DNA of 64,000 nucleotides from assembly GCA_051294905.1 (NCBI GenBank), contig CM119371.1:13952001-14016000 (forward strand), written 5' to 3'. Positions 3,361 to 47,301 of this stretch are shown piece after piece. How positions within the stretch are numbered: position 1 is the stretch's first letter; each line of letters opens with the position of its first letter. The position numbers were made by a program, and so were the translations under genes. Under the pieces are notes generated by a model, which did no database searches, was not told the origin of the DNA, and saw nothing but the letters and a program-made list of their open reading frames with translations. Source of the stretch: Botryllus schlosseri. Lineage: Eukaryota.

Positions 3361-4584
3361 CAACTCAAGTAGGATTAGTGCCGTAAAGTTCCACTCAATT
3401 TCAAGCAGCTCTAGCTATTTCTGTTACATGAAGCTGAAGTGCTTGAGTAAGCTGCTCAAGTAAGTAATTTCAAATTGTAGAATTTGGTCGTCGGGTTTCA
3501 TAGTTCTAGTAGTAATAGGATGTGGGTAGTAGGCCTACTGTAGAAATTGCTAGATGCATCTTCTTGACTAGTGCAAAGTGACTGACGAAACTACAAACGG
3601 ATACATGCTTCCAAAATATATGTAGTTAAAATAGTCCATGGGCTATTTAAAGCCGTTCTTAGGAATCATAAACATGATCTACATGATGCAGATTTATCCC
3701 CAAACTACTTTCTACTTTTTACAATTATAAGAAGATGGTTATGCCTCAAAAACTGCTCAAGAATCGAACACGGGCAAAACTGTAGTACTCTATAAACGTA
3801 GAAGTAGCTCTTTACTGATAACCACTGATTTCTTTCGTATCGTTTTTGCATGGGGCACAGCAGAATTTCAATCTATCTTTAATAGGGTTACCATATTTTG
3901 AGATCCTGGATTTTTTCCACAGATTCAGAAAGCTCTAGTACCGGCAAAGAAAACTAGTGATATCGAGAAGTTTTCGACCAATAGAACTGTGTTGAATCAA
4001 AATAGAGAACATTTAGGCATCATCTCAGGACACTTACAATTTATTGGAAAAAGAGGACAAATCCTCCCGTATGGTAACCCTAACCTCTTATCGCTTTCAG
4101 GGTGTATGTTGAAAACATGACTACAGTCTAAAATTTTTCATGAATATCCTAGTATAAAAAGTGTATTGCTTAAAATATGTTGAGTAGAAGCAGATATTCC
4201 TGAGAAATATTAGTAATCTATAAATTTAACAACGTAAGTAAGCAGCGAAAGTAGGTTTTTCATGTTTGTATTCACGTACCTGTAGATGTTTTCTTTTCCC
4301 ACTATAAAAGGACAAAGTTGATGCTTTTGTTCCACCCTGATATTTACTGTCTCTTATTTGACTTGTGAGAAATGAGTGGGAGACTGGAAGCCCTACACCT
4401 ACTTGAATTTTTTTGTGAAATTAGGTGTTGCGGGTGACTTATCAATGGTGGTTATTCTATCATTATAAGAATTAGTATTATGCGTATTTTTTCTGCTATT
4501 GGTATGATATCTATATCTAATCATTTTTATTTTTTAAAACAGCACTAGCCTTTATTATATATCCTTTGCAAGCAATTTGTGATC

Positions 4585-7561: not shown

Positions 7562-9197
7562 ATGGTGCGAAATGTATATTTGGATGCGGAAAAGCACGCA
7601 GTGTCTATGATGACTGAATTGCATCGAATGAAGCAAGATATCGATCATTGTGACTTCATAATTCAAGTCGAAGATGATGTCTATCACACACACAAAAAGG
7701 TATTGTCGGCTGGTTCCGTATATTTTAGAGCCATGTTGAAACACCACACAAAAGAGAGTCATGAAGGAAGAGTCGTTCTCAAAGATGTCGATTCTCAATG
7801 TGTCAAAAATTGCATCGATTTCATATATTCTGCCACATTTCAGATTCCTGATGGAAAAGTTATTGACCTTCTTCACGTCGCAATCATGATGCAATTGGAT
7901 GATGTAAAGCAAGCTGTCTCCACTATTTTAGCGAAAGCAATTACCGTTGAGAATTACTTCGCTACCAGGAATGTTGCTGATATTTATGGACTGGCGGATG
8001 TTTCTTCGAGATGCAGAATATTTTTACAAGATCATATCATGGAAATCGCTAATCAAGATGGATTTGGTAGCGTTGAAAAAAATGACCTTCTCAGCCTTAT
8101 GAAGTCGAGAAAATTTAAATTAAGCGAAGAAGAAAAGCTTACGTTATCCCTCAAGTGGGTCGAGAAAAGTAAAAGTGAATATTTGCACGAATATCTCAAA
8201 GTAATCAAGTTTGATAAAATCTCGCCGGTGTGTTTGCAACATATTCTACAAACCCACCCCCGTATCTGCAACGATTTCGGGCTGTACAAGCTGATCAATG
8301 GATATATTTTGAAAGCTTGGATCAAGGAAAGAGAGAATATTGATGCTGACGAATTGATAATTTTTTTTGAATTGGACACAAATAACCTCCGATCTTTCAA
8401 CCCAATGACAGAGGAAGTAAAAAATTTCCACGATGAAAAGGCCAAGTTCTCTTTGAAGAATTTTACATTAACTTCCCTTGACTCATATATTTATGCATTG
8501 TGTGAGGAGAAATTGGTTTATCGGCTAAATTTTCTTCTTAAAAACTCAAAATGGGAAAAGATGAACAACATGATTTGCGACCATGGTGTGCTTCCTCCCT
8601 CAGTTTCTGTTACTGGTTCCATGTACATCATTGGAGGAAGTGAATTCACAGCAACAACTGATGTGGAAAGATTTGACCCATCTGTAAATAAATGGTTTCA
8701 ACTGGAAAACAAACCGTCAGCAATTTGCGATGCAAGTCTCGTATCACTGGATGACTCCGTTTATTGTATCGGAGGAAAAGCACAAGATGGTACAGTAGTT
8801 GCATCATTCTCCGGATTCACTCCATCCTCATCAGAGTGGGTTGATCTCGAACCAATGAAATATCCAGTGTATGGCTGTGGTGTTGTTTCAGTTCATCAAA
8901 AGATAATTGTGATCGAGTGGTGAAGGTGTCATCGATAACGTAGAATGTTACGATGTTACTTCAGCTCAGTGGACTTCGTTGTCGTCTATGAATGGTTGTC
9001 GTAGTGGGACTGCCGCATATCAAATCGGCAAATGGATTTTTGCATTGTCCAAGTCTGATGAGATTTTTGTCGTTGAGAAGTATGATACATCAAACAACAA
9101 ATGGCGGAGGCCTACCATGGGGTTGAGACTAAATCGATCTTACAATATCTACGAATCCACTATGGTGAAGGTAAAGTCGCAGAGGTTCTCAAATTAG
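7562..9197 (+). pseudogene. Frameshifted KLHL-like paralog of the 1711 gene (type A copy 2)
   Basis: ORF closely similar to 1711..3360 stops at 8923 after IIVIEW; homologous Kelch sequence (ECYDVTSAQWTSL...EKYDTSNNKW) continues in another frame to 9197. Confidence 0.8.
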
Positions 9198-13990: not shown

Positions 13991-16497
13991 CAGCCACTTC
14001 TAGCAGCTTGCAGACACAATCATTAATGACGTACTTCTCCTTTTTCATAGTACTCAAGTACTACGGTACGAACGTTAGGAAAATATCTCTTATCAAGGTC
14101 TGTTTGCATTGATGTGAGAAATTTTATAGATCGTTGGTATGTTGGAGCGCATCAAACAACACATCCCTAAGGTCAGTGCTTCACAACCGGTGGGCTATTT
14201 CAGATAGGTCGTGGATAATTAACTAAATTCTATTCAATTTTATTACTATGCTAAGCACCTTATCTTCCCATGATTAGACGAACGAATAGCCGTTCTCCTT
14301 CTCGAAATTACATTGTTTTTTTTGCGCCCATAAGTACCTTAATCCACGTTCCCTTTTTGCGATTAATCATTTTGAGTTGATCGCAAAGTTGGACAGTGGG
14401 TTTTGTGTATGAATTCATTCTTTTTCTTTGAAAGCATTGCGAATAGTGATTGGAACATTGATTTGACACAGCATCCAAAACTACGTTCTACTTCACGAAA
14501 TCCAAAATGTCGAAAGCAAGTACCGTACCTACTTCTGTATAGAAACGGTTGAGTAGAAGCTTGAGTCCTGGCAATAAAACTATTTCAGTATGCCTTTCAC
14601 GGGAAATCGAAAATGTCCCCTGAGGACGCCTACATGTCATCCTTCTTGTGAATCCGTCCTCCTTTATAGATTTGACAGCCATATAGACAGCACCAGAGCA
14701 CTGCAGTATAAAGTGGGTCATTCGGGAGTCGAGATGGAAAAATTGACTTTTTTAATTGCGTGGTATTTATAAAGTGCGTTTTTTTCCAGATCCCGAATAA
14801 CCATAATAAGTAGCCAAAACCTACTTGAGTAGTCCGAAAAGCAGAAGTACTTTGTTGCAGACCACCTCTGCTTCAGAGTTGATGATTGTTACGTATATAG
14901 AATGTCGATGTCAATCGTATTTGTGCCAAGGTTGTTAAATATGTAGCCGGATAAAACTCATCTTGAATGACAATTGAAGACTTCCTTGCTTGAAAGTTGC
15001 AGCTTTCTTGACCATGATTGAAAGAAAATCCTTACCTGTGATGACAAAGAAAGGATACATCAATTTAAAAACAATCCAAATTCTAACACTGCAGTCACCC
15101 AATATATTGAGACTTCTTGTTACATACGGAATTGAGCTAGTTATAGGTGGTGGCACAAAAAGGCAAATATTCGGATACAGAATCATTGATTTTGGGAAGG
15201 CAGAAAATCAGAATTTACTGATCTTTGACCCCAAGGTAGTCCCTCAGAGAGGCATTGTTCTTTGACAGATATAAACTGATTGGTTGACATTGATGTATGA
15301 ATGTCTTTTGTGCTGCAAGTTATGATGCCGATGATTGAAGGAACAGCATTTACATGATGATCTTTAGATTGCAATCCACTGTAACTAAATAAAGAATGGT
15401 TGTATAAAGTAGAATCGATGAATCTAATATATCACAGGTTGTTCAATCCAGGCTATCTTACCAGTATATGTGGTATATAACGAATCGGCGATAGCGTCCT
15501 CATATAATTTAAAATTAAAATTTATAATTATAAATATTCAACCATATCACAGCATGCTATTTGGAGTTTTTAATGCCACTGCATGCTACTTGAGTTTTCA
15601 TGCTTGTCCTTGTTAATGACACATTCAGTCCCTCACAGAACTGTTACAACTCGACGGCGGACGGCGAGTTGGACTGGAGCAATCGTTGCGAATAATGACT
15701 GACTGAGTATAATTAACTGGCTAATAAGTCCGGACACAGTAAGTTTCCCCTTGTGTGTATTGTATAATGTCGATCAAACAACCCAGACTATATCATATCG
15801 TTAAAAAATACGCTGGCAAATACTCTAAATGAGAAATTACATTAATTAGAGTCAGATTCAGAGCGGCGTGGAAGCCCTGTTTACGGCACGACCGCTTTCG
15901 GAGAGAATGATTTGTGATCCAGTTTCTTCTTGCGTGCGGCGAGGTGACTCGAGCGTAACCAACCATTGATACGGACAAAAATCCACCGTGACATAAGCCG
16001 CCCCCGTGGCGAAGCGTAATTGCAAATAGGCAGTTATCGGTGAGCCACAGAAAAAATGAAGGAATGGTGGTTTTTTGGATTATGAAGACAATCGGGGCAT
16101 GAAGAAATATGCAAGGCAAATGCAATGTATAGAAAGCTGATACAGCGTCAGTAAGCGAAGGCAATGTACAGAAAACGTGCAATATGAGTAGGCAAAAGTT
16201 ATTTAATTCAAGGCAACACTATTTCGGATGCCACGACGAGTACCAGTTGTGTACAAAACAGTAAGTTTACGATTGGAAGTCTGGTCTCATGATCCAGAAT
16301 TTTTCTTAAAATTAGGGACAGAACTTGCAGTAGCAGGATAGTGACGTATTATCAAAGCGGGTGACATTGTGCGGTAAACTTATGGGTTTTTATGCTTCTC
16401 AAGGAAACTGAGAACGATTCAAGTCGGGACGGAAAAGAACATATGACAGAATAAAAATAAAACATGTCAGGTAACGCGCGCGCGGAGCGATCCTGGT

Positions 16498-19377
16498 TCA
16501 AGGCGGTCGTTGACGGACGAAGGCGTTGAATCGAGCGGAGGTCGTTTGAATGCTGCGGAGCATTGCGGTGCTGTCGATACAGAAGCGAGCGGAGTCGATA
16601 TCGTAGTCGAAATCTTTTACGTCTGTAGCAAGTTTGTTGCCGGATACGGCTGGGGCAAGTTGCAGTTTGCGTCTGCTTGGCATCTTTCGTTGTTGGGTAT
16701 GGAAATGGATAGGTTCTAAAGTTCGTTCCGACGAAGGCAGCAAGTCCGGCGGAACGGCTTGAGTGTACCCTCGAGACAGACCCTCGTAGATCTTTTCTTT
16801 ATACTTTCGAAAGAACTCGGGTTCTTCCGCGACTTTTGAAGGTCGGTTGTCGCGCGATTTCACGGCAGCTCCATTGTTGTAGGGCGGTTTGACAGTCTGC
16901 GTTTTCTTGAGCGGAAACACTTCGTGACGTATGTTTGTTGTGTGCGGAGGCGCAGCGTCTTCTACGTTGGACAGAGGTTGCGTGTCGGCATCAGAGTTTC
17001 CAGAAATGTCGAGTTTGCCATAACCAGGGGCACAGGAAGTCGGACTGTCACTTACAGTAACAGGTATCAGGTCTTTTTGTCCCTGCAGAGGGACTTCGTC
17101 GTTTGCAGATATGATAGGCCCAGTAGAGACATTGGTACTACTTGGAATGACTGTTCGGAATTGGGCTCTGGGAACAGCCCCGAAGAGTTTCATGGTTACA
17201 TCTCCGAAGAGTTTGATAGTTACAGCAGTATCATGATTAGGAGAGTCGCATGGACTAGGTTTAGGGTTTGGATAATTTGTCGGTGCGGGCGCCGGCCCAT
17301 TAACGGGCCTCTGACCGACACCACTGTGTGTTGTGTCAGACGCAGGTGGGAGGCTTTTGAAAAGTTTGCGGGGATAAGATGTGGTTTCGGTTCGAGCGGA
17401 GTACTTATCGTTAGGATTTATGTTTACGGGCTCAAGGACGCAATCGGATTCATAGATAAAACTAAAGGCAGGAGCGACTCTATCGCGAGCATGAGAACTG
17501 TATTTGTTGTGCGCTAAGGGCACTAGATCGGCATTGAAATCGTCTGTACGACGATGAGTTGCGAGTTTATCGCGAGAGCGAGAAGCGAGATCGTTGTGCC
17601 CGGTTGGCACATTACGAATATCGGCGGATTGACCGCGAGAACAAAGAATGAGATCGTTGTGCCCGGTTGGCACATTACGAATATCGGCGGATTGACCGCG
17701 AGAACAAAGAATGAGATCGTTGTGCCCGGTTGGCACATTACGAATATCGGCGGATTGACCGCGAGAACAAGGAATGAGATCGTTGTGCCCGGTTGGCACA
17801 TTACGAATATCGGCGGATTGACCGCGAGAACAAGGAATGAGATCGTTGTGCCCGGTTGGCACATTACGAATATCGGCGGATTGACCGCGAGAACAAGGAA
17901 TGAGATCGTTGTGCCCGGTTGGCACATTACGAATATCGGCGGATTGACCGCAAGAACAAGGAATGAGATCGTTGTGCCCGGTTGGCACATTACGAATATC
18001 GGCGGATTGACCGCAAGAACAAGGAATGAGATCGTTGTGCCCGGTTGGCACATTACGAATATCGGCGGATTGACCGCGAGAACAAGGAATGAGATCGTTG
18101 TGCCCGGTTGGCACATTACGAATATCGGCGGATTGACCGCGAGAACAAGGAATGAGATCGTTGTGCCCGGTTGGCACATTACGAATATCGGCGGATTGAC
18201 CGCAAGAACAAGGAATGAGATCGTTGTGCCCGGTTGGCACATTACGAATATCGGCGGATTGACCGCGAGAACAAGGAATGAGATCGTTGTGCCCGGTTGG
18301 CACATTACGAATATCGGCGGATTGGTGTCGAGAACGAGGAATAAGATCATTGTGCGCATTAGGCACGTAACGGATATCGGCGGGTTGACCGCGAAAATGA
18401 GAAGTTATATCATTGCGCGCATTTGGCACGAAACGGATCTCGGCGGGTTGACCGCGAGAACGAGAAGTTATATCGTTAGATCTAAGGTCACTCTGGCACT
18501 GCGGAGTGTTTCGAGAATACGAGGGAATGACCGGCCTCGAACCGGCAGTGAAACTATGCGAATGGATGGACTGGGAATGACATGGGATTGCTGATGCGAT
18601 TAACTGACGAGTGGTCGGTAACGGTTGGGTTATCGCCGGCTCCGGAACGAGCCTCTGCCCAGTACTGCTGACTGGTATAGATGCAGGCGTGCCCAAGGTA
18701 TTTAAAGTCATTGCTTGAGTAGTGGGCGAAGGTAAGGGTTCAGTACTCACAGCGTTTTCGGTGACGGTAATGTTGGACTCTTGTGATTTGAATGAACCAT
18801 CAGCAGATCTTTGTTCTTCCTCGGCAGCTGCCAATTCTGCGGTAGCTATGAGGATCTGACTTTCGGCGTCGATTCGTTTCTCGAGAATCTGCCTTCGTTT
18901 CATTTCCAGTTTGGCTTTATCGAGTTGCAGCTTAGCGTCCCGGACTTTGGCTGAGCCTCTTGAGGACGTGGCGGAATGAATACTCTGTGATTTATTGGAA
19001 GTTCGAGGTTTAATGCAGTCAAGGGTGACATTTGAAGACGAGTTCATGTTTTCTTCTCGGTAGGCTTGGTAAGCGCAATGTGCATAACGCTGACCAAGCG
19101 CGACAGTTAACAACAGTAAATGTATTTGTTGGACGCTCTCAAGGTAGAGGTCTTTTTCAGCTTCTTGGTACAATCGTTCCAACTCGTCGATGAGTTGAAT
19201 GCAAACTTTGTTGAATTCGTCTTTACATTTGGTGACGTGTGGTAGCGATGCATATTGTATGGCGTATGAGAAAGCGCGCTCGGCTTTCTGGTAAGCGGCA
19301 CTAGAATTTCGAAGGACTTCGTCGATATACTGCTTGCACAAAACCTGTCGACCGGCGGCTTGCAGTGTTCGATACAT
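16498..19377 (-). CDS. Element A single ORF: gag-like N-terminus and coiled coil, 21-aa repeats, fused BEL pol remnants
   Basis: 959 aa open. PPYNNGAA...PEFFRKYKEKIYEGLSRGY resembles the BEL pre-RT region and IDSTAMLRSIQTTSARFNAFVRQR the BEL RNase H region; no RT core or integrase. Confidence 0.75.
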   Translation of the reverse strand: MYRTLQAAGRQVLCKQYIDEVLRNSSAAYQKAERAFSYAIQYASLPHVTKCKDEFNKVCIQLIDELERLYQEAEKDLYLESVQQIHLLLLTVALGQRYAHCAYQAYREENMNSSSNVTLDCIKPRTSNKSQSIHSATSSRGSAKVRDAKLQLDKAKLEMKRRQILEKRIDAESQILIATAELAAAEEEQRSADGSFKSQESNITVTENAVSTEPLPSPTTQAMTLNTLGTPASIPVSSTGQRLVPEPAITQPLPTTRQLIASAIPCHSQSIHSHSFTAGSRPVIPSYSRNTPQCQSDLRSNDITSRSRGQPAEIRFVPNARNDITSHFRGQPADIRYVPNAHNDLIPRSRHQSADIRNVPTGHNDLIPCSRGQSADIRNVPTGHNDLIPCSCGQSADIRNVPTGHNDLIPCSRGQSADIRNVPTGHNDLIPCSRGQSADIRNVPTGHNDLIPCSCGQSADIRNVPTGHNDLIPCSCGQSADIRNVPTGHNDLIPCSRGQSADIRNVPTGHNDLIPCSRGQSADIRNVPTGHNDLIPCSRGQSADIRNVPTGHNDLILCSRGQSADIRNVPTGHNDLILCSRGQSADIRNVPTGHNDLASRSRDKLATHRRTDDFNADLVPLAHNKYSSHARDRVAPAFSFIYESDCVLEPVNINPNDKYSARTETTSYPRKLFKSLPPASDTTHSGVGQRPVNGPAPAPTNYPNPKPSPCDSPNHDTAVTIKLFGDVTMKLFGAVPRAQFRTVIPSSTNVSTGPIISANDEVPLQGQKDLIPVTVSDSPTSCAPGYGKLDISGNSDADTQPLSNVEDAAPPHTTNIRHEVFPLKKTQTVKPPYNNGAAVKSRDNRPSKVAEEPEFFRKYKEKIYEGLSRGYTQAVPPDLLPSSERTLEPIHFHTQQRKMPSRRKLQLAPAVSGNKLATDVKDFDYDIDSARFCIDSTAMLRSIQTTSARFNAFVRQRPP
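17587..18480. repeat. 63-bp in-frame tandem repeat (12 near-identical plus 2-3 diverged units)
   Basis: Unit GAGATCGTTGTGCCCGGTTGGCACATTACGAATATCGGCGGATTGACCGCGAGAACAAGGAAT, encoding SADIRNVPTGHNDLIPCSRGQ on the minus strand. Confidence 0.97.
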
Positions 19378-20244
19378 ATCGATGTCAGTCAGCTCTCGTA
19401 TTTTTTAACTTATGTCCTTGTTATTGACACATTCAGTCCTTCACAGAACTGTTACAACTCGACGGCGAGTTGGACTGGAGCAATCGTTGCGAGTAATGAC
19501 TGACTGAGTATAATTAACTGGCTAATAAGTCCGGACACAGTAAGTTTCCCCTTGTGTGTATTGTAGAATGTCGATCAAACAACCCAGACTATATCATATC
19601 GTTAAAAAATACGCTGGCAAATACTCTAAATGAGAAATTACATTAATTAGAGTCAGATTCAGAGCAGCGTGGAAGCCCTGTTTACGGCATGACCGCTTTC
19701 GGAGAGAATGATTTGTGATCCAGTTTCTTCTCGCGTGCGGCGAGGTGACTCGAGCGTAACCAACCATTGATACGGACAAAAATCCACCGTGACAATGCTC
19801 AACAAGTCGGAATGATGTTGCAAATGGGGATTTGATTCAATGTCGAGGGTTGCAAAACCATTTCTGTACCTCCATTTACAAATCCAGGTTCAAGAACAAA
19901 ATGACATACTAGTTTTCTGTTTTTTTATGCATTTTGGTGCAGCAATTGCTCATGTCTACTGTAAAATGTAGCCGAATGCATTTTTATAGGAGAGATGTCG
20001 GCCTTACTCTGCTGCCAGAGTTAGAAACCACACAAGCACAACATACAACAGGCAAAGCATCAATTAGAAAGAGGCTAACACTACATCTTGACAAGAACAT
20101 GGCACCACTTAGGTGATGCACCAGCCACTAATAACAGAACAACGACAAAATTCCCGCTGAAGAGTATGGGCTGGCCGCTTTCCAATGAACAATGTTAGTG
20201 GCTATCGGTTAACTTGAAGACGACACTACTTGAACAGCATAAAC

Positions 20245-23167: not shown

Positions 23168-24796
23168 CTAAACTTTTATAAATGTGGATTCATAAATTGT
23201 AAAACATTTATCAACTTTTGGTTTCACCATTATCCATTTGTCTTTTGAGACATCATACTTTTCAATAACATCAGAGATATTTCCATATCCTACTGCATAA
23301 ATCCACTTATCAATGTGATGAGCAGACAGAATGCGATGACCAGAAATCATAGATGACAATACAGTCCAATGAGCTGAAGTAACATCGTAACATGATACGT
23401 AGTCGACTTCGATCCCTCCGCTGTAACCACCCATCACAAAAATCTTTCGGTCAACTGCAACGACACCAGTATCAGTCACAGCATATCTCATTGGCTCGAG
23501 GTCCACCCACTCCGATGACGATGGAGTGAATCTGCAGAATGAAGAAACTTCGATATAATCTCGTCCCACGCCTCCAATACAATAAATGGAATCATCCAAT
23601 GATACAAGGCTTGCATCACGATTTGCCGTAGGTTTATTCTGCAGTTGAAACCATTGATTTAAAGAGGGAGTAAATGTTTCCACAGCATCTGTCGCAATAG
23701 GATGGCTTCCTCCAATAACGAATATTGATCCTGACAACGGAACTGATCGAGGAAATTCACCATGGTCACAAATCATATCTTTCATCTTCTCCCATTTTGA
23801 ATTTTTGCTTCGGCAATCGAGTCGGTGAACAGATTTATTCTCACATAAAACATAAATGTACGAGTCAAGAGAAATCGTCTCAAAACATTGAAAATGCTCG
23901 AACTTTTCATCGTGGAACTTCTCTACGTTACGGGTTATTGGATTGAGGGATCTGATACAATCCGTGTCTTGATCAAAAAGAATAATCAAGTTCCTGTTGT
24001 CAATTTCTTCTTTCGATTTCCTCAATCTTTTTGAAGCTTTCAGTAGATGCCCGTTGATCAAATCGTACAATCCAACGTCATCGCAGAAAATCAAGTTTGA
24101 TTCCAAAAGATGTTCTACAAAAGCTGGCGACATTCTGTAAAACTTGATCACTTCAAGACATTGGTCCAAATGTTCCACATTTTTACGATTATTTTCAACC
24201 CACCGAAGCAATAACGTTAGTTTCGCTTCTTCACATAATTCGGATCTTTCCGACTTCACAGAATTGAGGATGTCATTTTTTTCAATATTTTGAAATCCAG
24301 GCTGCATTGATATTTCCATGATATTTTCCTGAAGAAATACTCTGCATCGCGTAGAGACGGCATCCAGTCCGTACATATCGGCAACTTTTCTTGTGGAAAA
24401 GTAATTCTCTACAGTAATTGACCGCTCCAAAATATCAGACACGGCCTGTTTCACATCTTCCAGCTGCATCATGATCGCAATATAAAGAAGATCATAGATC
24501 TTTTCATCGGGGATCTCAAATTCACCAGAATATATGAAATCGATGCAATTTTTCACACACTCGGAATCCACATCTTTAAAAACGACTTTTCTTTCACGAC
24601 TTTCCTTAGTGTCGTGCTTCAGCATTGCTTTGAAATAATCACTACCAGACGACAATACATTTTTGTGAGTGTAATAGACATCATCTCCCACTTGAATTAT
24701 GAAATCACATTGTTCATTATCTCGCTTCATTCGATGTAATTCTTCCATCATTTTCACGGCATGTTTCTCCACACTTGGACACGCAATCTTCACCAT
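23168..24796 (-). CDS. Kelch-like protein (BTB-BACK-Kelch), inverted copy
   Basis: Intact ORF with the same BTB, BACK and Kelch motifs; ATG at 24796 (MVKIACPSVEKHA). Confidence 0.92.
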   Translation of the reverse strand: MVKIACPSVEKHAVKMMEELHRMKRDNEQCDFIIQVGDDVYYTHKNVLSSGSDYFKAMLKHDTKESRERKVVFKDVDSECVKNCIDFIYSGEFEIPDEKIYDLLYIAIMMQLEDVKQAVSDILERSITVENYFSTRKVADMYGLDAVSTRCRVFLQENIMEISMQPGFQNIEKNDILNSVKSERSELCEEAKLTLLLRWVENNRKNVEHLDQCLEVIKFYRMSPAFVEHLLESNLIFCDDVGLYDLINGHLLKASKRLRKSKEEIDNRNLIILFDQDTDCIRSLNPITRNVEKFHDEKFEHFQCFETISLDSYIYVLCENKSVHRLDCRSKNSKWEKMKDMICDHGEFPRSVPLSGSIFVIGGSHPIATDAVETFTPSLNQWFQLQNKPTANRDASLVSLDDSIYCIGGVGRDYIEVSSFCRFTPSSSEWVDLEPMRYAVTDTGVVAVDRKIFVMGGYSGGIEVDYVSCYDVTSAHWTVLSSMISGHRILSAHHIDKWIYAVGYGNISDVIEKYDVSKDKWIMVKPKVDKCFTIYESTFIKV

Positions 24797-25794
24797 GATT
24801 AACAACCAAATGCAATATATATCAAATTTCACTACAATTATTTATTACTGCATAGAACTGTTATTGGAGTAAAGGTTTGTTAACATGAGTAATGCCTTTT
24901 GAAAGCTACCACCAAAGACCGGGTATTTGCTCGTCTAGTTCAGAGAGTAGACGGTGTATGCCTAAGGTATCACCTGTCCCATTTTGTGAAATACCAAATA
25001 TGCATAATCAATATTTTTCAGTGTTGTGCTATCACACCTACAGTATTGTGTTGAGCCCCTATGGAATCTCGGTTCATTTTTTGAAATAAATCCTGCATGA
25101 TGAAAACTCTTTTCTGTATAGAATAATTAAGTAATTAAACAGAAGATCCTGCGTGACGTTGCCATCAGTTGCCACCAATTCCACTCTGCGTGTTGAGTGT
25201 TGTGCTGATGACGAAATTGCGGGTATGATGACGAATAACCGCGTCTCAGAATATAGTAATACACGGCGTGGATCGCATACTCAGGTTTAGCGCGTTATGT
25301 ATGAACATGAACAATTAGTACATGCTCAGTTGAAGAATGGCTGTCCGACTCCGAGTATGCTTGGATAACTGAACTGGATGATAGATTTCTAGTTGTCTAA
25401 TTTCATTAAATTATAGCGAAATGCCAGTAATCTAATTGTAATGTTATATGAGCTCGTGGAGCTTGTGCACGATCTGCCCTAAGTCAACGGTATTTCGGTC
25501 CCGGCGCTCAGGCAAAATCCGCCGTTTCATAAACGGAAAATTGTTAATGGGCACACGGCTTTTTACCGGGTGGAAATTACATTAACCTGTCTGCAGAAAT
25601 GGCAGAAATGGGAAATAAAGGTGTTAATGCTACTCTAGTAATTCTATAAAATCGAACGAGTGAATTTATGTAAATTGTTACAAATTAGTGATGTGAATAC
25701 TTATAAATACCGATATATATTATGTGAATATGTTTGCAGGCGAACTATAATGTGGGGCAAGTAGAATAAAGACTGACATATAACGAGTCGGTAT

Positions 25795-28700
25795 TGTGGA
25801 ACGCCCTGCGCCCTCTCACGGTTCATACACTTTGTAAGATACAACATCATTATGGTACATCGCCTATATCTGTATATCACGTGACTTATATCTTTCTTCT
25901 CGCAACCACGTGACTTACCATTTATCAGCTCGTGCATTTCAATTACAAACTAGACTCATACGCGATATCCTACTGTATATTCCATACGTATTCGACCAAT
26001 ATATCTATCCGAGGCAATACTGTCGTTGCATTTACGTTGGAGTTGTCAGATCAAGGACTAACACAGGGACGTGCGTCTACTACGAAAAGAGCTAAGTATA
26101 TCTACCCAGCCACACATTACGTGGGACTCAGGTTGCAACTCTAGCAGGTTATCAGACGCCATATCTGGTCTGCATGGTGCCAACTCGTGAGATGATTTCA
26201 GCTTCAACGAAGGACGAATCGCCTCCTACACAATTGGACTTACAACTGCTATGGAGCCATCCAGGACTTTTTCAGACTTACACGGTAAATCCGTTTATTT
26301 GACTTCGAATTTCGGGAATGCATTCGGCAGTGAGAATGATTTATCTCACTTGGCTTTATCGGCTAGCAGCAAATTTCTTCGTTATTGCTCGATTCGTGCT
26401 TTCTACATAATTATATTAGTTGTTTGTGTTTCTGTATTCAATGCCATGACATTCAGAGAACCAGATTTGAGTGATACTCTGACACTGCCAAGACGTTGTT
26501 CATTGGTTTCGTTTTTACATTACGGCCTTAAAGTCTGTTATTTTATTCTTAACGTTTTCCTTTCTAACGACATTATCACATCCATTCGGCGTCGGGAATT
26601 ACACTGTCGGCCGCCTGATAAAATCGCTTCTCTACCCCGTGAAATCGAATATTAACCACCGATCCACTATTCAATATTTTCATAAATAACTTCACTTTCG
26701 CACGATTAGCCTACCTGACTCGTTTACCAAACCATTTGCTTACAATTGTTTAATTGTTCAACAACTCCATTTCGATTTTATTATAAATTTTGCGGTTTTC
26801 CTACCCTCGTATTACCTCGTAACTCACTACCAATCACCATGGTTATTTACCAATCTATTTTTTGTTCGTTTTGTTATATTCACGTCATTTCCGTGGAACA
26901 TAACTACTAATCCCATTATTTTAATTTCGGAATATTTCTTTAAACCTAATTCATACATTACTTTTTGTGATTTCATCTGTCATTCATGCGACATTGACTT
27001 CCGCGCGTATTTAAGCGCTACCCTTTTTTTAACTACCGTAACTACATACCGTCAATGTGAATTCCATAACAATAGTGACGCGTCTTTTCGGCCGACTATA
27101 ACATAACATCCCACCGTATTTAATATGATAATTCTGCGGCAACATCAGCTCTTTTTAACCGGCAATTTAGATCTCGGCTATGAACTATTAAGATATACCA
27201 GTAGCACTGGGAATTGGGATTTTATAATTAACTTTATTTTTCTAACTTCAATTCATCTTATCTAATTACGCGTATTCGCATAGCCTCGCTTTGCTACAAT
27301 TTCTCATAATGGTTATTTGATTTTAATCACATATTTGCATTACTTAAAACTCAGCCTTATGCTGGAATTTGTGGATACGGAATTAATTTCCCATTTTTTT
27401 TAAAAAACATTGACTTATTTACTTTCTTTATACTAGGTCTTTTACATAATCGCTTACTTCTAATTACCCATACTTAAATAAGGCCTCTTTAACACGGTGA
27501 CAAATTGTCATTTTTCTTCGTAATTTACGTCTTTACATACTTACCCGCGATAATGTCATCTGAACATACTCAGATTTTACAACCTAGCTATATGCGATTA
27601 ACGATACATTTATTTTACCCGCAATGCCATTTGGACGCAATATTATCTAAATATCCCGTGATTTATTTTGGCCACGGACATTTCCCGTTTTATATATGCT
27701 ACTCCGACTAGGAAATCAAGAATTGTTTCGGCTTATGTGTTGTGATCTAAGGCACAAATTTCGACCCGGGTGTATCCGAGTCTTCTCAAAGCGTCGGCCA
27801 CGGGATTGCATATCTGGTCCCGCTTTACCGCCTTGATCAAGCGGTGGGGCGGAGTCAGTGTTGTAATTAGACTCGAGGTCTCCAGCGCTCAGACTCGCGA
27901 TATTACGAAATCTGATGCTGACGTTCGCACCGCAATCTGAGTCATTTCTTCGATCTACTAGGAAGTCCGTACTTACAAAAGCGTTACAGTCACTGTATAT
28001 TATATATATACTTTTAATGTGAAGCACGATTCTTACTTACGCAATTGTGCATTAACTGTCGCGACGTGTTTAACGGCACACGTCAATTTATTTCCGGAAA
28101 CCTTTTTATACCTGGAGAGCATATGGCGCGCAGATCCAGCGATATGTCTGGATTTGTGGTATGCCATGCGGTGTACATATCGCTAGGGACTTTTCTGGAC
28201 ATGACTGCGTGTTCGCAGCACTAAATTCGTACATGCCATTAGGCTACCTAACAATACAAACATTTGTCATTACTTCGGCTATTGTTATTACATTCTCTTT
28301 ATAATTTTTACACTATACTTTCACGACTTACTTTGTCATATAATTAAATGACGAATTCCCCGCGTTACGCTACGATTACATTCATCTTGACATGCTTTGA
28401 TGCGAATATTCCATTTCTAGATACTTTTGATCTGATTAATACACCCGGATAACCCGGCATAATTTCCATTCACTTCGAGATTACGTAAATTTTTATTTAT
28501 TTCTACTTGAAAGCTCAAATTACTCACAAGGCTTATATAACCGCCTTGCGTCCGTCACGCATGGAATAATCGATTCAATACTTAGTACTTACGCTTACAT
28601 TATAGCGTAGGCCTACTCGGCTCATTTCATTCCTATCGGTGCAGATTTTCACCACTTCATATCTGGTTCACTGACAATACAATGTGTTTATTTTATTTAC

Positions 28701-30638
28701 CTTCTTTTTCAATTTGTCATTAGGCTACTTTTATTGCTATTATTATTTTCCTACTTTGTGAAATAGCCTTTTTGCTGCCGATATTGCATTGCATTCTAGA
28801 ATTCGTTGTCGTCTGCCAACGGGTCTCGCGAACTGCCGCAATGCTCTCTACTACACAACAACCTCCGATCTCCGATTCCGCCGCCTATGTCAACATTTCG
28901 GGACATACCAGTTCAACATTACTTTGGTAACACCACGTATTTATACGCATTTTTAAGTCGACTTCGATAGTCGTGAAGAATATTCGCAGAACAGGCGATA
29001 CGCGTTTTAACCTTGGCGGAGTGAACTAATTGGATCTAAATACAATCATTATTGAGCAATGAGCATTGACTGTTAATTATTCCAGGCAGGTTCGCGACCC
29101 ACGGTGCACGGTTTAACTGTATATAAATAATTATTCGGTCTTCCTAAAGACTGATGGACATTTGACATTTCCATCGCGATGAATTTCCTAATCCTTGAAA
29201 TATTAGCATTCATGAACTTTTTCTATTATATTATATTAATTTTCGTCAATCGCACGTGGAAACCACGCTTCTCTTGCATGGCCGGTTATCGCGTGAACAA
29301 TCCCGTAACCCGGATACCCAAAGTGGATTTTGATTGACAGACATTTCCCGCAACCTCTTCCGAGATACTGATTTGTTTTGCCTACATTTTGAGAGATACT
29401 TGCTACTTGGTTTGTATAATTTTCCCCTATTGCGGCAGACTTAACGCCGCCGCCCGTACCGTCTAATGTGATAATCGGTCTTCCCCGCTGTCGTGGGATT
29501 TTCGGCGGCTAACAATAACACATATCTACCCCATTTCCCACACTAATGACCTATTCGTCATGCCGTATTCCGCGGCTCCTTTGTTTGTCATATATCGAAC
29601 CGATTGTCGGCCATTTTGTATTCAATTGTCGACCCTTTTTTCGTGTTATTTTTTTTTCCTTTTTCATTTTAATACAGATTTCATAAAATTGCCCTTTACA
29701 AGCCGTTCTGGTATCTTGAACCACGTGTTTCGATTAATTTGAAAAGTAGTTTTGACTTTAATATGCTCCCCAACCATACACTGGATTCCGCTTATAGGAT
29801 TTTGCCTTTACAAATAACATACACTCGTTTTAGAGCTACCACCAATTCGTTCTAGCGTATGACGCATTCGCCAGACCTAATGTCAATTACCTTGTGTACA
29901 TATTTTTTTTGCTTCTTTCGTACTTTTAATAAAACACAAAATTGCCTCAGATAACCAATTCGCCAATTTGACTATATTAAATCTTACCCTTAACGTGTTA
30001 TCGTCACGCTATCTCATACGGTTGCATTGCTATCATGTTGTATAAATATTCCAACATCAGGCTACAATATCGCATTTTCAATTGACGTTATTACCCTTCT
30101 ACCAATACTTTATTAACTACACACTTCGGCCTTACCTCGTTAATCAACATGCTATGTTTTATATGTTGAAATTATTACATTTCTTAATCGTACTACTATT
30201 CAATGCATGTAAATTTCATTTTCTATTGTCGCTAATCACGCCTTTTTAGCAGAGGCGATGTGGAACGCCCTGCGCCCTCTCACGGTTCATACACTTTGTA
30301 AGATACAACATCATTATGGTACATCGCCTATATCTGTATATCACGTGACTTATATCTTTCTTCTCGCAGCCACGTGACTTACCATTTATCAGCTCGTGCA
30401 TTTCAATTACAAACTAGACTCATACGCGATATCCTACTGTATATTCCATACATATTCGACCAATATATCTATCCGAGGCAATACTGTCGTTGCATTTACG
30501 TTGGAGTTGTCAGATCAAGGACTAACACAGGGACGTGCGTCTACTACAAAAAGAGCTAAGTATATCTACCCAGCCACACATTACGTGGGGCTCAGGTTGC
30601 AACTCTAGCAGGTTATCAGACGCCATATCTGGTCTGCA
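25795..30638 (+). mobile_element. Non-autonomous LTR retrotransposon, probably Gypsy-type (element C)
   Basis: 380-bp LTRs 25795..26174 and 30259..30638, TG...CA, about 4 mismatches; 4-bp TSD GTAT; PBS starting TGGTGCC at 26175; purine tract AGCAGAGGCGA before the 3' LTR; no long internal ORF. Confidence 0.92.
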
Positions 30639-42018: not shown

Positions 42019-42538
42019 TGTCGCGTAGGATCAGTTCTCGATAGAACTGGACTGGAATATTTGTTGCAAGTAACGACCGATATCTAACTGACCGTCAAAG
42101 TCCAGACACAGTGGGTTTCCGTAGCTTGTATTGCGAGTAGGATTAACTAACTGGTCTATAACGTATCGTTAAAATATACGCTGGCAATTACTCTAAATGG
42201 AAGATATTACGTTAATGCAATGCTACACGAAATGCGACACAAATTCCCTGTTTACTGTACGACGTCTGTCTCTAAAAAGGGCGAAAACGTGGTCGTCGCT
42301 TCTCTCGAGTTAAGAATTAAGTAGAGCATGACAGAGCCACTCATGCTGAGAGAATCCACCGTGACATAGCCGGCCCTGTGGCGAATGGTGAATGCCAAAT
42401 AAATGCAGTTATCCATGAGCCACGAATTGAAGGAATGGTGGTGATGAGCGTATGAAAGACTAATAATAGGCAAATTATGTTAGCACGAAAGGAAATAAAG
42501 AAAAACGTGTAATACGATTCGCGCGGTGCTAGCACAGA

Positions 42539-44422
42539 TTAAGGCGGACGTTCGATGCGGACATTGCGGAGTTGCAGATCGGACGAAGCGAATCGAGCGT
42601 ATTTCCGAAGCAGGTATTTCTTGATCTCGTCTCGGTGTCCACGGAATAGTTCAGGATCTTGCGAGGACTTCAAACGGTGAATATAGAGTGGCTTAGCGGC
42701 TGCCACTCTGTTGCGGGGCAGTTTCACGGTCTTCGTCTCCCAGGGCAGAAGCGGTTGGAAACGTCCAGACACGATATGCGGCGGTGCAGTGTCTAGTACA
42801 TTCGTGTGAGCTTGACTTTCGGCATCATAGTCTTCAAAATACCCCGGTCTGTCATAACCAGGGGTGCGGATAGTATGACTGTTGCTTGCAGTAGCATAAG
42901 AAAAGACTCTCTGTAGTTGCACAAGGACTTCAGTATTGCCAGGCATGGCCGGCCCAGTGGAGACATTCACACTGTGCGGAGTGGCCATTTGGTCGGTGCC
43001 ATTAGGATTAGCTTTCGTCGGGAAGTTGACGGTTATATCGTCGGTATGATTGGGGGAATGGACTGGACTAGGTTGGACATGGGCATTTCCAGGAATTGTC
43101 GGTATGGTCAAGTGGGAAGTAAGTAACGCAGTGACCGCCGGCCCATTAACGGGTCTCTGGCTAACAACCACAGATGTATCAGATGCATGCGTGCGAGTTG
43201 TGTCAGAGGTAGTAGGTAAAGGTGAATGTTCGGTACGCACGACAACGCTTTCTGGGACAGGTTTGTCTAGTTTTCGTGGGGATAAGTGGGACAATTTGAT
43301 ACTGGCGATTTTCAGCTTGGTGAGAGCGTCGACGAGTTCTTTCTTTGCTTTGATAAATTTCATCTTTGCTTCAAATTCGACTTCGAGTCCTTTCATCTCT
43401 ATTTCAAGTTCGGCCTTGATTTGTTCTCTTGCGGCTTCCTTGGAAATGGTGGCACTTATGCGAAATGGACGATTCGATTTAGTTCTTCTTCGTAGTTGAT
43501 TGGAATTATAGAAGGTACGCTGGTATGCTATGAATAAGGCGCTGTTGGCATTACTTCGACAGCGGGTGATATCTGCGTTCAGCTTGTAAATTCGTGGTAG
43601 GATGGAACCAGTGGACTCGTAGGCTTGTGTTATCTGTATCAGTTTGTGTAATGTATCCTTGAGCTTAAGGATTAGTTCGTCTAGTTCGCATTTACACTCG
43701 GCGACGTACGTGTGTGATGATGCGTTCTTGACGGTGTGGAAGAAAGCGCGCTTAGCTGTCTTGTAAGCGGCGGTGGATTCTTTTATAACTTTGTGAACGT
43801 GCTGCTGGCTGAGCACCTCCGCTTCGGCTGCTGGCAGTAGTGTATTGGAATGCTGCTGGCTGAGCACCGCCGCTTCGGCTGCTGGCAGTAATGTATTGGA
43901 ATGCTGCTGGCTGAGCACCTCTGCTTCGGCTGCTGGCAGTAATGTATTGGAATGCTGCTGGCTGAGCACCTCTGCTTTGGCTGCTGGCAGTGATGTATTG
44001 AAATGCTGCTGGCTGAGCACCTCTGCTTCGGCTGCTGGCAGTAATGTATTGGAATGCTGCTGGCTGAGCACCGCCGCTTCGGCTGCTGGCAGTAATGTAT
44101 TGGAATGCTGCTGGCTGAGCACCTCTGCTTCGGCTGCTGGCAGTAATGTATTGGAATGCTGCTGGCTGAGCACCTCTGCTTTGGCTGCTGGCAGTGATGT
44201 ATTGAAATGCTGCTGGCTGAGCACCTCTGCTTCGGCTGCTGGCATCGTCGGCTGCGTATCGACGGGCTGCTGGCTGAGCACCTCTGCTTCGGCTGCTGGC
44301 AGTGATGTATTGAAATGCTGCTGGCTGAGCACCTCTGCTCCGGCTGCTGGCAGTGTCGAATCCGTGTTGACTTGCTGCTGGCTGAGCACCTTTGCTTCGG
44401 CTGCTGGCAGTGATGTATCCAT
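42539..44422 (-). CDS. Element B single ORF, homologous to the element A ORF
   Basis: STAAYKTAKRAF vs SSAAYQKAERAF, QRPVNGPA in both, VKLPRN vs VKPPYN, DPELFR vs EPEFFR, both end in RPP; ATG at 44422 aligns with the element A ATG. Confidence 0.78.
   Translation of the reverse strand: MDTSLPAAEAKVLSQQQVNTDSTLPAAGAEVLSQQHFNTSLPAAEAEVLSQQPVDTQPTMPAAEAEVLSQQHFNTSLPAAKAEVLSQQHSNTLLPAAEAEVLSQQHSNTLLPAAEAAVLSQQHSNTLLPAAEAEVLSQQHFNTSLPAAKAEVLSQQHSNTLLPAAEAEVLSQQHSNTLLPAAEAAVLSQQHSNTLLPAAEAEVLSQQHVHKVIKESTAAYKTAKRAFFHTVKNASSHTYVAECKCELDELILKLKDTLHKLIQITQAYESTGSILPRIYKLNADITRCRSNANSALFIAYQRTFYNSNQLRRRTKSNRPFRISATISKEAAREQIKAELEIEMKGLEVEFEAKMKFIKAKKELVDALTKLKIASIKLSHLSPRKLDKPVPESVVVRTEHSPLPTTSDTTRTHASDTSVVVSQRPVNGPAVTALLTSHLTIPTIPGNAHVQPSPVHSPNHTDDITVNFPTKANPNGTDQMATPHSVNVSTGPAMPGNTEVLVQLQRVFSYATASNSHTIRTPGYDRPGYFEDYDAESQAHTNVLDTAPPHIVSGRFQPLLPWETKTVKLPRNRVAAAKPLYIHRLKSSQDPELFRGHRDEIKKYLLRKYARFASSDLQLRNVRIERPP
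43796..44418. repeat. Mostly 51-bp (17-aa) in-frame tandem repeat, 12 units with a 4-unit higher-order duplication
   Basis: PAAEAEVLSQQHSNTLL-type units; units 4-7 recur as units 8-11. Confidence 0.95.
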
Positions 44423-44767
44423 ATCGACGTCAGTCGGCACTCGTATATTTTAACTCTTATGTCGCGTAGGATCAGTTCTCGATAGAACTGGACTGGAATA
44501 TTTGTTGCAAGTAACGACCGATATCTAACTGACCGTTAAAGTCCAGACACAGTGGGTTTCCGTAGCTTGTATTGCGAGTAGGATTAACTAACTGGTCTAT
44601 AACGTATCGTTAAAATATACGCTGGCAATTACTCTAAATGGAAGATATTACGTTAATGCAATGCTACACGAAATGCGACACAAATTCCCTGTTTACTGTA
44701 CGACGTCTGTCTCTAAAAAGGGCGAAAACGTGGTCGTCGCTTCTCTCGAGTTAAGAATTAAGTAGAG

Positions 44768-47301
44768 CAGTGCTTTTCAACCTTTTTGAGCTTCGTTCGC
44801 ACTTTTTTTGTAAAATAAATTTCATTCGCACAAACTAACCGAATATTGATATGCAAAAAGAAGACGAAAATACAACATTTATTTGCTCAGATGTGCAACA
44901 AATTGGCTACTATGTATCTTAAGCTACCAAGTGTCTCATGAAAAATGCTACTATTTTCGCTCGTTTTGATTTCAGCTATTTCACTAAAACCCTTCTCCAA
45001 GTTAACTAGTGCTTGGATGGTCTGGTCTTAAAGCAGGGGTCACCAACACGCGGCCCGCGGGTCGCATGAGGCCCGCGATGTCATATTTTGCGGCCCGGGA
45101 TCTGTTTTCAGAAGAACGCCCAGTACTTAAATTTATTTCTGTTTAAAAATATTGTCGACGTTGTTCAAAATATGCTATTCTCCCTTTAGAAACGCGAAAC
45201 GCCCTCCTAAAACGTGAAACCCCATCCTTTTGAAATGGCCCTTCAGACCCTAATACTCGGTTGCAATTCAATAAGTCGTATTATCAGTGTTGCGCACGGC
45301 CAAATAACGAAAGGCGTGATACCAATTAGCGAGATTCGTCATTGCGCATTGCACTGCAAATGTAACGTGACACGAGCGACACGGTCTCCCGCTGAGATAA
45401 TTGCGAAATCACGTCATTTATTGCCGCGCGCTCGGCAAGCGTTGCTAGCCTGATCTATCGCGTCTCCAACAGGGCTAGTTCCGCTGGCTTGAATAATCAC
45501 ATCTGCAATTGGCGGTATGTGCACGATATCATCGCTTGTCTACACAATCGCATCTGCATTGACTTGGTGCGCACGATATCATCGCTGGCCTGCACAATCG
45601 CATCTGCAATAGGCCTAGTATACGAAAGATATCGCTAGCCTAACTACCAAGTCTTGGGCCTACCATACTTTGGCCGGGGCTACGTAAGACGCATTGGTCA
45701 GCGCGCGTATTTTATTGTTTGATGCCGTGATAAGCGCGGGTATTCAATTGTTCACAACAGATCAGGCAGTCGCTAATTAACATCTCTTTCGGACTCGTCG
45801 ACAAGCTTATCATACACGTATAATCGTCAACACGATGATGTTGTATAATCGTTATTTATGCATGTTCTTAACCCTAATGAATTGATGCTATATACCAGGG
45901 CCATAACTGCCGCACCCCAAACCCAATTTATGCAATATTTTCAAAAATATTTCGCGCTAGGCGCAATTTCAAGTCGCCAAATATCTTGATTATTGGGTGC
46001 TCTTCCCCCAAGAGAAAATACGCAAGATTTATAGAAATGGACATATTGGCGTAGGCCATTACCGCGGCACGAAGCACAAAGACATATAACGTTTTAGGCC
46101 ATGAAACATGCGACTCCAAGAAGTGTGCCAGAACGATCGCAGCGAGACAAACACACAAGACAAATACCATCCTTCAGGAAAAAATTAAATGCCATTGAAG
46201 AAATACCAATCCGAAACCGTGTGATCTTTCAGTCTAGTACGTTTGAGCGATTCTATATTTTTGATATAGCAGACAGGAGGTCACGAAATAACATCATGTA
46301 ACAAAGTCATACCAACGGGTCCGTCCGCCCGAAGATGTTCGATCATTATTTACGGACTGTACAGTTTCAAAGACACCTCACTCAGCTCTACCGGTAAAAC
46401 TCATTACGTGAGCAGAGAGGACAAGAAATTGATAGCAATATATATGCAATTCCCGATCTTATTGACCGATTTTATCATGAATCATCGAAAATTTTCGCGC
46501 TTAGCGCTAGCTCACTGAAGTTCAGTTTATCGCCATATGGGGGCCCAGGAACAACGTTTGGGGGGACTGACGAAGTGCTGTTACGGCCCTGTATATTACT
46601 AAATTCGGTAAAAATCACACCCGCCCCTTTATTTCAACCACCCTCCCCCTTTTTTCGGCTGGCTTCGCCGAACAGACAGATAGTCCTGGCAGTGTGAACC
46701 CAAATTATACCCTTTGCAGTATATACTTTAATAACCCCTGAAAGGGTAAAATTTGCGTTACTGTAACTTGCAAATGGCAGTCTGTAATGATAGTATTTAC
46801 TACTGTCCTCGTGCCTAGCACTAATCGAACAGGTATTACGCAAGTATTGATGATTGTTTAGCGAAAGTAAGCAGAAAGTGAATTTAACGTCATTTTCCCA
46901 GCCTCCGACGGGCTGCTATATGTCTGGTCTGTCACTACACCAGCTTCCAAGCCAGGGTTTTGGTTACGTAATAATTATAGTGCGAAAATATCAATTCACT
47001 ACGGCTTGTGAGAGCTACGACTAGTGGTACGTCCCAAGTTAAACGAGTTTTTACAATTGCGTCGCAACAACTAAGGTTACACTGCGCTTGAATTTCGTAT
47101 TATGTTTATTTGAAAAGCAATTATTATTCACGATTTTCATTCGCACTCATCCGGGATTTTCATTCGCATCGTTCGCACCACCTTCGTCATTCGCACTCAT
47201 CCGGGATTTTCATTCGCACCGTTCGCACCATGTTCATCATTCGCACTGCAAATTTTTTCATTCGCACAAGTGCGAACCGTCACACAGGTTGAAAAGCACT
47301 G
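44768..47301. mobile_element. Non-autonomous hAT element inserted in the 5' LTR of element B
   Basis: TIRs CAGTGCTTTTCAACC/GGTTGAAAAGCACTG, 8-bp TSD AAGTAGAG; the other LTR shows the empty site. Confidence 0.93.

Follow-up and report, generated by a model that had tools for sequence, protein, structure and literature searches.

A putative Tf1-like self-priming site in BEL/Pao retrotransposon families of Botryllus schlosseri

Introduction

The window analyzed here is a 64,000-nucleotide stretch of the Botryllus schlosseri genome (GenBank assembly GCA_051294905.1, contig CM119371.1, positions 13,952,001 to 14,016,000 of the forward strand), and it contains two long terminal repeat (LTR) retrotransposons on the minus strand, elements A and B. 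A few nucleotides past the 5' LTR, each has a site exactly complementary to a motif within that element's LTR. An earlier note on this stretch proposed that elements of this lineage, which it labeled BEL/Pao, are self-primed. Comparison of 15 BEL/Pao (sub)families of the same 495-Mb genome suggests that these families very probably prime minus-strand DNA with their own RNA, in the manner of Tf1, instead of with a host tRNA. The comparison strongly supports the proposal, as 12 of the 15 (sub)families have a complement to their own LTR at this place and no tRNA-type primer-binding site (PBS) there; priming itself we infer from sequence.

Elements A and B

The features of both elements are collected in Table 1. 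Element A is flanked by a 5-bp target duplication, AGCAT, read directly at 19795-19799 and 15600-15604, and its LTR has at least 42 matches in the genome. On the minus strand the A 5' LTR terminates in ...CAAGGACA at 19413, followed by TAA and then by GTTAAAAAATACG at 19409-19397. The earlier note had located the LTR motif and its complement in both elements, 3 nt past the LTR in A and 5 nt past it in B, and every one of these sequences was found where it had been reported, as was the absence of TGG after either 5' LTR. The single difference between A and B that the note described as mirrored at both sites is likewise borne out, CGTATATTTTAAC being a one-mismatch variant with its own exact complement, and in the geometry described the 3' end of a primer would face U5. 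A pattern search of the window with the 13-mer, allowing at most one mismatch, gave 6 matches against 0.15 expected, and none of 100 shuffles reached 6.

The LTR pair of element B was identified by self-BLAST (44460-44769 versus 42019-42328, 99.7% identical). The B 5' LTR in the window is not complete, as it lacks the first 38 nt of the family LTR when compared with the 3' LTR of B, which starts at 42366, and with another copy (L066). No target duplication is present at the ends of B. A 564-bp direct repeat (99.8% identical) lies at 41455-42018 and 47349-47912, and one copy adjoins the end of the B 3' LTR. Together, the direct repeat, the truncated 5' LTR, and the missing target duplication suggest a rearrangement or duplication around B.

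Table 1. Positions of features in the window
Feature	Position	Strand	Basis or remarks
Element A, non-autonomous BEL/Pao-derived LTR retrotransposon, 4.19 kb	15605..19794	-	LTR pair, self-BLAST
A 5' LTR, 382 nt, TGT...ACA	19413..19794	-	self-BLAST
A 3' LTR, 389 nt, 96.4% identity with A 5' LTR	15605..15993	-	self-BLAST
A LTR motif CGTATTTTTTAAC, LTR positions 182-194, proposed primer, at or near R start	19601..19613	-	3' LTR copy 15800-15812
A poly(A)-signal variant AATACA	19557..19562	-	alignment, invariant in six families
A poly(A) addition sites, R/U5 border, LTR positions ~250-254	19541..19545	-	poly(T) read ends
A U5 hairpin, 7-bp stem, 4-nt loop	19455..19472	-	RNAalifold, columns 180-186 with 191-197
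A candidate PBS GTTAAAAAATACG, exact complement of A motif	19397..19409	-	spacer TAA, 19410-19412
A open frame, 968 aa: gag-like N-terminus, 21-aa tandem repeats, remnant of pol start	16498..19404	-	
A purine run GGGGGCGG, polypurine tract candidate	15998..16005	-	4 nt (CTTA) upstream of 3' LTR
Element B, second non-autonomous family	42019..44769	-	self-BLAST, LTR comparison
B 5' LTR	44460..44769	-	
B 3' LTR	42019..42366	-	
B LTR motif CGTATATTTTAAC	44609..44621	-	3' LTR copy 42168-42180
B candidate PBS GTTAAAATATACG, exact complement of B motif	44442..44454	-	spacer TAAGA, 5 nt
Unrelated LTR element with conventional PBS TGGTGCCAACTCG	25795..30638	+	PBS directly after 5' LTR (25795-26174)

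Assignment to BEL/Pao

Elements A and B lack pol, and a Pfam search of their open reading frames (ORFs) matched no family. By sequence comparison both are non-autonomous BEL/Pao derivatives, because the LTR, leader, gag N-terminus, and pol remnant are common to pol-bearing relatives. The A frame, including its N-terminus, 21-aa repeats, and C-terminal remnant, matches the polyprotein of the 5.9-kb family C, which contains PF05380 (Peptidase_A17, the Pao peptidase), DUF1759 (in three of the C copies), and DUF5641 (in one of them); the integrase core is deleted internally in the C copies examined. The BEL/Pao label of the earlier note is thereby upheld, the gag N-terminus, leader, and LTR of A and B being shared with families C and E, in which PF05380, DUF1759, and DUF5641 occur. 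Families C, E, F, G, H, I, K, and L contain PF05380, at E-values of 1e-21 to 1e-51 (2e-34 to 1e-50 in the pol pieces of all of these but C).

A reverse transcriptase (RT) search of the genome returned 167 matches that fall into identity tiers: 92-100% for C, 84-87% for E, 70-72% for F, and 33-38% for many further families. Family E (with E2) has ORFs of approximately 2,030-2,150 aa and retains the pairing, and it is likely the autonomous partner of A because its LTR is 89% identical to that of A from position 140 onward. Target duplications of 5 bp flank members of I, J, K, L, and H2, and the LTR of M ends in ..ATA. Family-specific tandem coding repeats (63-nt and 51-nt units) occur in the gag-like frames of A, B, and C, at 17435-18553 in A (63-nt units), at 43749-44417 in B, and in a C copy (L055), and they account for much of the length difference among these families.

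Pairing across families

The RT identities of the 15 (sub)families compared extend down to 33-38%. A perfect complement of 10-13 nt, anchored 0-5 nt after the LTR end, is present in 12 of the 15, with unrelated, covarying sequences (Table 2), and the remaining three (H, H2, and M) form 9-10 bp including one G.U pair. In none of the 15 families does TGG occur within 0-8 nt of the LTR end. The geometry is common to the families: the LTR ends in ..ACA, a spacer of 0-5 nt follows, the site starts with GT, and its complement lies 110-270 nt upstream and ends in ..AC. The covariation between PBS and LTR that the earlier note described for A and B extends, as a family-specific exact complement with many compensatory changes, to these 12 (sub)families, and such changes separate the sister families A/B/E, I/J, and G/G2. 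The LTR borders of G, H, H2, I, J, K, L, and M were set independently of the pairing, from 5' and 3' LTRs that are 99.3-100% identical.

Table 2. LTR motifs and candidate PBSs in the BEL/Pao (sub)families
(Sub)family	LTR motif	PBS	Pairing
A, C, C2	CGTATTTTTTAAC	GTTAAAAAATACG	exact
B	CGTATATTTTAAC	GTTAAAATATACG	exact
E, E2	CGTAATTTTTAAC	GTTAAAAATTACG	exact
F	GATTTTTTAAC	GTTAAAAAATC	11 nt perfect plus a G.U
G	ATATTGTTAAC	GTTAACAATAT	11 nt perfect
G2	TGTTGTTAAC	GTTAACAACA	10 nt perfect
I	CTGTATTTAC	GTAAATACAG	10 nt perfect
J	CTGTATCTAC	GTAGATACAG	10 nt perfect
K	AAGTTTCTGAC	GTCAGAAACTT	11 nt perfect
L	TATTTTAAAAC	GTTTTAAAATA	11 nt perfect
M	AATTGTTTAC	GTGAACAATT	10 bp, one G.U
H, H2	TCAGAAAAC	GTTTTTTGA	9 bp, one G.U

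Among the closely related families, all 78 of the 78 alignment cells pair, double changes are seen in 2 of 13 pairs, and a covariation score as high arises in 4 of 500 shuffles. The pairing was also compared with dinucleotide-shuffled sequence, using the upstream 390-450 nt of 13 (sub)families (G2 included; J, M, and H2 left out) and 1000 shuffles. The length of the real anchored complement was matched by 0-15 of 1000 shuffles in 12 of the 13 (sub)families and by 832 of 1000 in H. A position control scanned the following 150 nt in 15 (sub)families, with G2 left out; in 12 of these the anchored perfect complement is 10-13 nt, versus at most 9 nt elsewhere (only 9-24 positions were available in B, C2, E, and E2). 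LTR controls of the tRNA type, namely the element at 25795-30638 and the abundant family N, give 5-6 nt only, the longest LTR-internal complement in the former being 6 nt.

Relatives of these elements were collected from metagenome contigs by a profile search with the PF05380 region, which yielded 79 loci. Contigs with overlapping ends or in tandem (e.g., L143, L144, L159, and L201) were left unjoined and unused, and three loci whose repeats lack CA ends (L171, L173, and L204) were excluded from the anchored test. Four loci had usable LTR borders. The anchored complement is 11 nt in L146 (CGATGTTTTAC/GTAAAACATCG), 9 nt in L140, and 8 nt in L175, and L170 has none. A scan under a strict design (CA, 0-5 nt, GT..., and a perfect complement of at least 9 nt located 40-450 nt upstream) found matches in 7 of 33 loci versus 0.88 expected, and these matches form a covarying series of the type AG-N5-AC (AGTTTTTAC, AGCTCTTAC, AGTTCTCAC, AGTTTCGAC, and AGTTTCTAC). 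Scanning without the anchor, at a minimum of 10 nt, yielded little. Several of the metagenome motifs are preceded by C, which places the first paired A where an initiator would put +1. In L146 the 5' repeat copy starts inside the motif (TTTAC, position 145) while the 3' copy has the full 11-nt motif (6918-6928); this is a single case of a 5' border at the proposed primer site.

A chance or low-complexity coincidence in AT-rich LTRs is one alternative explanation for the complementarity, and the A 13-mer is indeed not rare, with 85 sites genome-wide versus 63 for its reversed control. This explanation does not account for complements that, in 12 of 15 (sub)families and with different sequences, are anchored where the LTR ends, for the compensatory changes between sisters, or for the recurrence in metagenome elements. 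It is refuted by the shuffle test, the position control, and the strict-design scan, and is exceedingly improbable.

RNA folding and decay of single copies

The folding of the R-U5-PBS RNA, which the earlier note had raised, was examined with minimum free energy (MFE) and consensus predictions. The helix between motif and PBS is predicted in the MFE fold of 14 of 15 families, with mean pair probabilities no lower than 0.82. The RNAalifold consensus of six families has a 13-bp helix that closes the R-U5 domain, and covarying U5 hairpins. Pairing in the stem of the U5 hairpin of A (Table 1) is kept in other families with two compensatory pairs. The A RNA from 19615 to 19391 has a predicted energy of -59.6 kcal/mol (z -2.8), and the motif-PBS helix is part of this fold.

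The exact motif is kept in 19 of 30 aligned A-family LTRs. Using a set of patterns, an exact complement was found upstream in 8 of 9 A-type, 4 of 4 B-type, and 2 of 4 C-type junctions, and at least two copies of a C subfamily carry GTTGAAAAATACG, which gives a G.U pair. Complementarity is kept in most of these junctions and lost in some A- and C-type copies.

Two further regularities were observed at the ends of the helix. The proposed primer always ends in AC-3' (with the PBS starting in GT), both in the host families and in the metagenome loci L140-L211, and the base that follows it is G or C, which is unable to pair with the A preceding the PBS. The conserved AC-3' and the flanking mismatch may result from a sequence preference at the cleavage or initiation step.

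Search for a host primer

Host tRNAs were compared with the first 60 nt past the LTR. Of approximately 36,000 candidates, 63 were scored in the Rfam tRNA search; 20 representatives gave 19 genes, and the longest complement found in these was 8 nt. As a check of the PBS against host tRNAs this agrees with the earlier proposal, and it is a weak test at 19 genes of four anticodon types. Within 20 kb at G000 C3:34488226-34508096, tRNA-Lys(UUU) genes, at least 20 in number, form a dense cluster. Outside recognized elements the 13-mer has 25 sites, of which 4 are LTRs and the rest other repeats or singletons; no tRNA or RNA above the Rfam threshold is found among these sites. Since the site past the LTR starts with GT, the CCA-3' end of a tRNA would be unable to pair next to U5. 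Three different PBS alleles occur, and one host RNA is therefore unable to match all of them. A U6 run would terminate RNA polymerase III (Pol III).

These results bear on the possibility that the helix is only a structural or regulatory pairing, with a function in, for example, packaging, dimerization, or the control of gag translation, and that the primer comes from the host, as a tRNA fragment or a mitochondrial tRNA would. Stems between U5 and leader that surround the PBS are used by retroviruses and by Tf1, which provides a precedent for such a helix. Tf1 structures are mentioned in an excerpt of PMC7175516. The host tRNA sample is also limited to four isoacceptor types, and mitochondrial tRNAs were not looked for. 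A purely structural helix is quite unlikely given that the 3' border of the LTR, which LTR comparison and target duplications fix, lies 0-5 nt from it, where the 3' end of a primer must anneal, and that the site starts with GT and not TGG, leaving no fit for CCA-3'. Furthermore, each of at least 12 distinct PBS sequences pairs with the LTR of the element it belongs to, the 13-mer is in no tRNA or Rfam RNA examined, and no second PBS of the TGG type adjoins the LTR.

RNA reads and the R region

Raw reads from one bulk and one single-cell RNA run carrying the same species label were mapped on 18650-19900, and the transcripts are sense to element A. In run X21, 26 reads have poly(T) overhangs before 19541 and 8 reads have them before 19545, placing poly(A) addition 56-60 nt downstream of the A motif; consequently, the motif lies upstream of the R/U5 border, within R. 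Poly(A) addition takes place 16-20 nt past AATACA and just before TGTGTC, and both of these sequences are invariant in six families. Transcripts of the 3' LTR are present, as 207 reads run from the internal purine-rich tract into U3, with read ends at 19794.

The depth of the bulk reads, with both mate classes summed, is approximately 8 at 19658-19783, 46 at 19574-19615, and approximately 16-25 over U5. This profile fits an RNA start between approximately 19657 and 19574, blurred by cross-mapping from sister families. By eye, the first paired base is preceded in most families, at a distance of 0-2 nt, by CA or (T)CAGT, a context that resembles an initiator, and approximately 25-35 nt upstream there are AT-rich patches similar to a TATA box. 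As evidence for the start site these sequence contexts are only suggestive.

Proposed priming mechanism

The end of an LTR is fixed by the start of minus-strand synthesis. The 3' end of the primer must therefore anneal 0-5 nt past the LTR in these families, and the only partner found for the site at that place is family-specific and lies in the R of the element itself. A mechanism similar to that of Tf1 can be proposed on this basis. The genomic RNA of A would begin in the LTR at the motif or a few nucleotides upstream of it (~19615), and would consist of a short R (~75 nt, to the poly(A) site at 19541/19545), U5, and the 0-5-nt spacer. R would fold back with its first 9-13 nt (CGUAUUUUUUAAC in A) onto the site past U5, so that the R-U5 domain is closed. 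Cleavage behind the invariant ...AC-3' would free a 3'-OH that faces U5, and by analogy with Tf1 the enzyme may be the RNase H of the element. From this end the reverse transcriptase would then copy the spacer, U5, and what remains of R to give strong-stop DNA, which would move to the 3' R. The primer may act in cis or in trans, from a co-packaged RNA, and its source may be the 5' R or the 3' R.

Plus-strand strong-stop synthesis is known to copy the primer in the case of tRNA primers. Copying of the RNA primer in the same step would rewrite the PBS of each new copy from the R motif, so that the two sites stay complementary, which would explain both the exact pairing in young copies and the heritable G.U variants. 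Whether self-priming is the normal mode of large, active BEL/Pao branches in several animal hosts, with a primer consisting of the capped 5' end cut after AC-3', stands at about even chances.

Several observations weigh against self-priming. No read joins complementary DNA (cDNA) to an RNA primer, and the reads mapped on 18650-19900 form no pile of molecule starts. Read ends bearing an oligo, presumably the template-switch oligo, lie upstream of the motif at 19716 (12 reads) and 19683 (16 reads), and 12 chimeric reads end 37 nt upstream of it. Families H, H2, and M have no perfect complement and do not stand out in the controls, the helix of family F is absent from its MFE fold, and the LTR ends of F and G2 were set without comparison to a 3' LTR. 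The covariation within the close clade is modest (2 of 13 pairs), and the argument therefore rests mainly on the divergent families. No match of 9 nt or more under the strict design is present in 26 of the 33 metagenome relatives. Six of nine A-family 5' LTR-PBS junctions are perfect, one has a G.U pair, and two have a 1-nt deletion in the T-run of the motif, while the failing C-type junctions comprise one with two mismatches and one with a disrupted LTR. Lastly, the tRNA sample is restricted to the 19 genes and four anticodon types given above, mitochondrial tRNAs being outside it.

Were these upstream ends genuine transcription starts, the motif would lie inside R and would not be the 5' end of the RNA. 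The element's own RNA could then still prime, with a start further upstream such as 19631, 19683, or 19716, or the primer could be the 3' R copy, a co-packaged RNA, or a short LTR transcript. This variant draws on the template-switch-type ends and the chimeric ends, on the presence of the motif in both R copies, and on families G and H, in which the poly(A) signal is only 6-19 nt past the motif. It is unlikely considering the distance between the motif and the poly(A) site in A, the initiator-like contexts and TATA-like patches described above, and the low share of the upstream read ends, which amount to 1-2% of local depth in a 3'-biased library.

In the 12 chimeric reads, which are bulk reads (run X23), a template-switch-type oligo and a 19-nt leader are joined to A-like sequence at 19631. 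The leader is LTR-internal sequence of the abundant short family N, which is tRNA-primed (617 sites) and has the PBS TGGCGAGCACGCCAGGAC. The junction of leader and motif has no match in the assembly, and the reads could represent a polymorphic copy, RNA recombination, or a library artifact.

Comparison with known systems

To our knowledge, self-primed reverse transcription is established only for Tf1/sushi elements of the Ty3/gypsy group. In Tf1, the first 11 nt pair with the PBS and RNase H cuts between nucleotides 11 and 12, as described in excerpts of PMC7175516. The BEL/Pao families resemble Tf1 and Tf2 of S. pombe in that the PBS is complementary to a stretch of RNA transcribed from the element itself (11 nt in Tf1 versus 9-13 nt here), the fold-back would close the R-U5 domain with the 3' end of the primer facing U5, and the loop contains a hairpin in U5. 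They differ in having a BEL/Pao RT and PF05380 and are not Ty3/gypsy chromoviruses, so that they would work alike without being members of the Tf1/sushi group. In addition, the helix of the BEL/Pao families ends with ...AC-3' on GT and lies next to a 0-5-nt spacer, and whereas the transcription start and the RNase H cut of Tf1 have been demonstrated, their BEL/Pao counterparts are predicted from sequence.

Self-priming has also been predicted for Tcn1 and TAR/Houba/Osr-1 (PMC6317226, in the portion that treats these elements). These predictions are likewise computational and are based on complementarity between the PBS and the 5' R together with the lack of a tRNA PBS; that portion deals with Gypsy and Copia elements of plants and fungi and lists no BEL/Pao element. 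In the account of the Belpaoviridae by the ICTV, the international committee for virus taxonomy, an extract of which describes priming by host tRNA, the PBS is 18 nt long and complementary to the 3' end of tRNA-Arg or tRNA-Gly (PMC8742986). A tRNA-Tyr PBS is given in the relevant section on Achilles, a BEL/Pao element of the olive fruit fly (PMC4580426). The host families share with such tRNA-primed elements the superfamily, the gag-pol polyprotein, the TG..CA LTRs, and the 4-6-bp target duplications, and differ from them in lacking a PBS of the TGG type. Membership in BEL/Pao stands by pol although the families do not have the tRNA-type PBS, which is a descriptive and not a phylogenetic criterion.

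No passage on a PBS or tRNA was found in the BEL/Pao survey PMC3118150, the Sinbad paper PMC554778, or the roo and Daphnia papers, and no report of self-priming in BEL/Pao was found in the full-text literature searched, subscription papers and supplements being outside its scope. The best reading is that Tf1-like self-priming is new for BEL/Pao while the mechanism itself is known. If true, the mechanism would be extended to metazoan elements, and BEL/Pao elements would be freed from dependence on host tRNA pools. It would also explain why tRNA-based PBS finders fail on BEL/Pao families and provide a simple sequence rule for the annotation of U3, R, and U5 in BEL/Pao LTRs. The evolution of priming (hairpin or self versus tRNA) would become testable in animals with abundant recent insertions. 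Should self-priming hold across active branches, Tf1-type priming would be recurrent or ancestral in a third superfamily of LTR retrotransposons, and the textbook account of BEL/Pao, an animal virus family in the ICTV scheme, as tRNA-primed would be overturned.

Other features of the window

The unrelated LTR element at 25795-30638 has 380-nt LTRs that are 98.9% identical (TGTGG..CTGCA) and a 4-bp duplication, GTAT. A cluster of intronless BTB-BACK-Kelch genes in tandem units of approximately 2.9 kb is located at 1687-3360, 4549-6147, and 7541-8923 on the plus strand and at 23168-24841 on the minus strand. A long interspersed nuclear element (LINE), a non-LTR retrotransposon, lies at 37880-40876 on the plus strand and has a 998-aa frame with an apurinic-type endonuclease and a reverse transcriptase.

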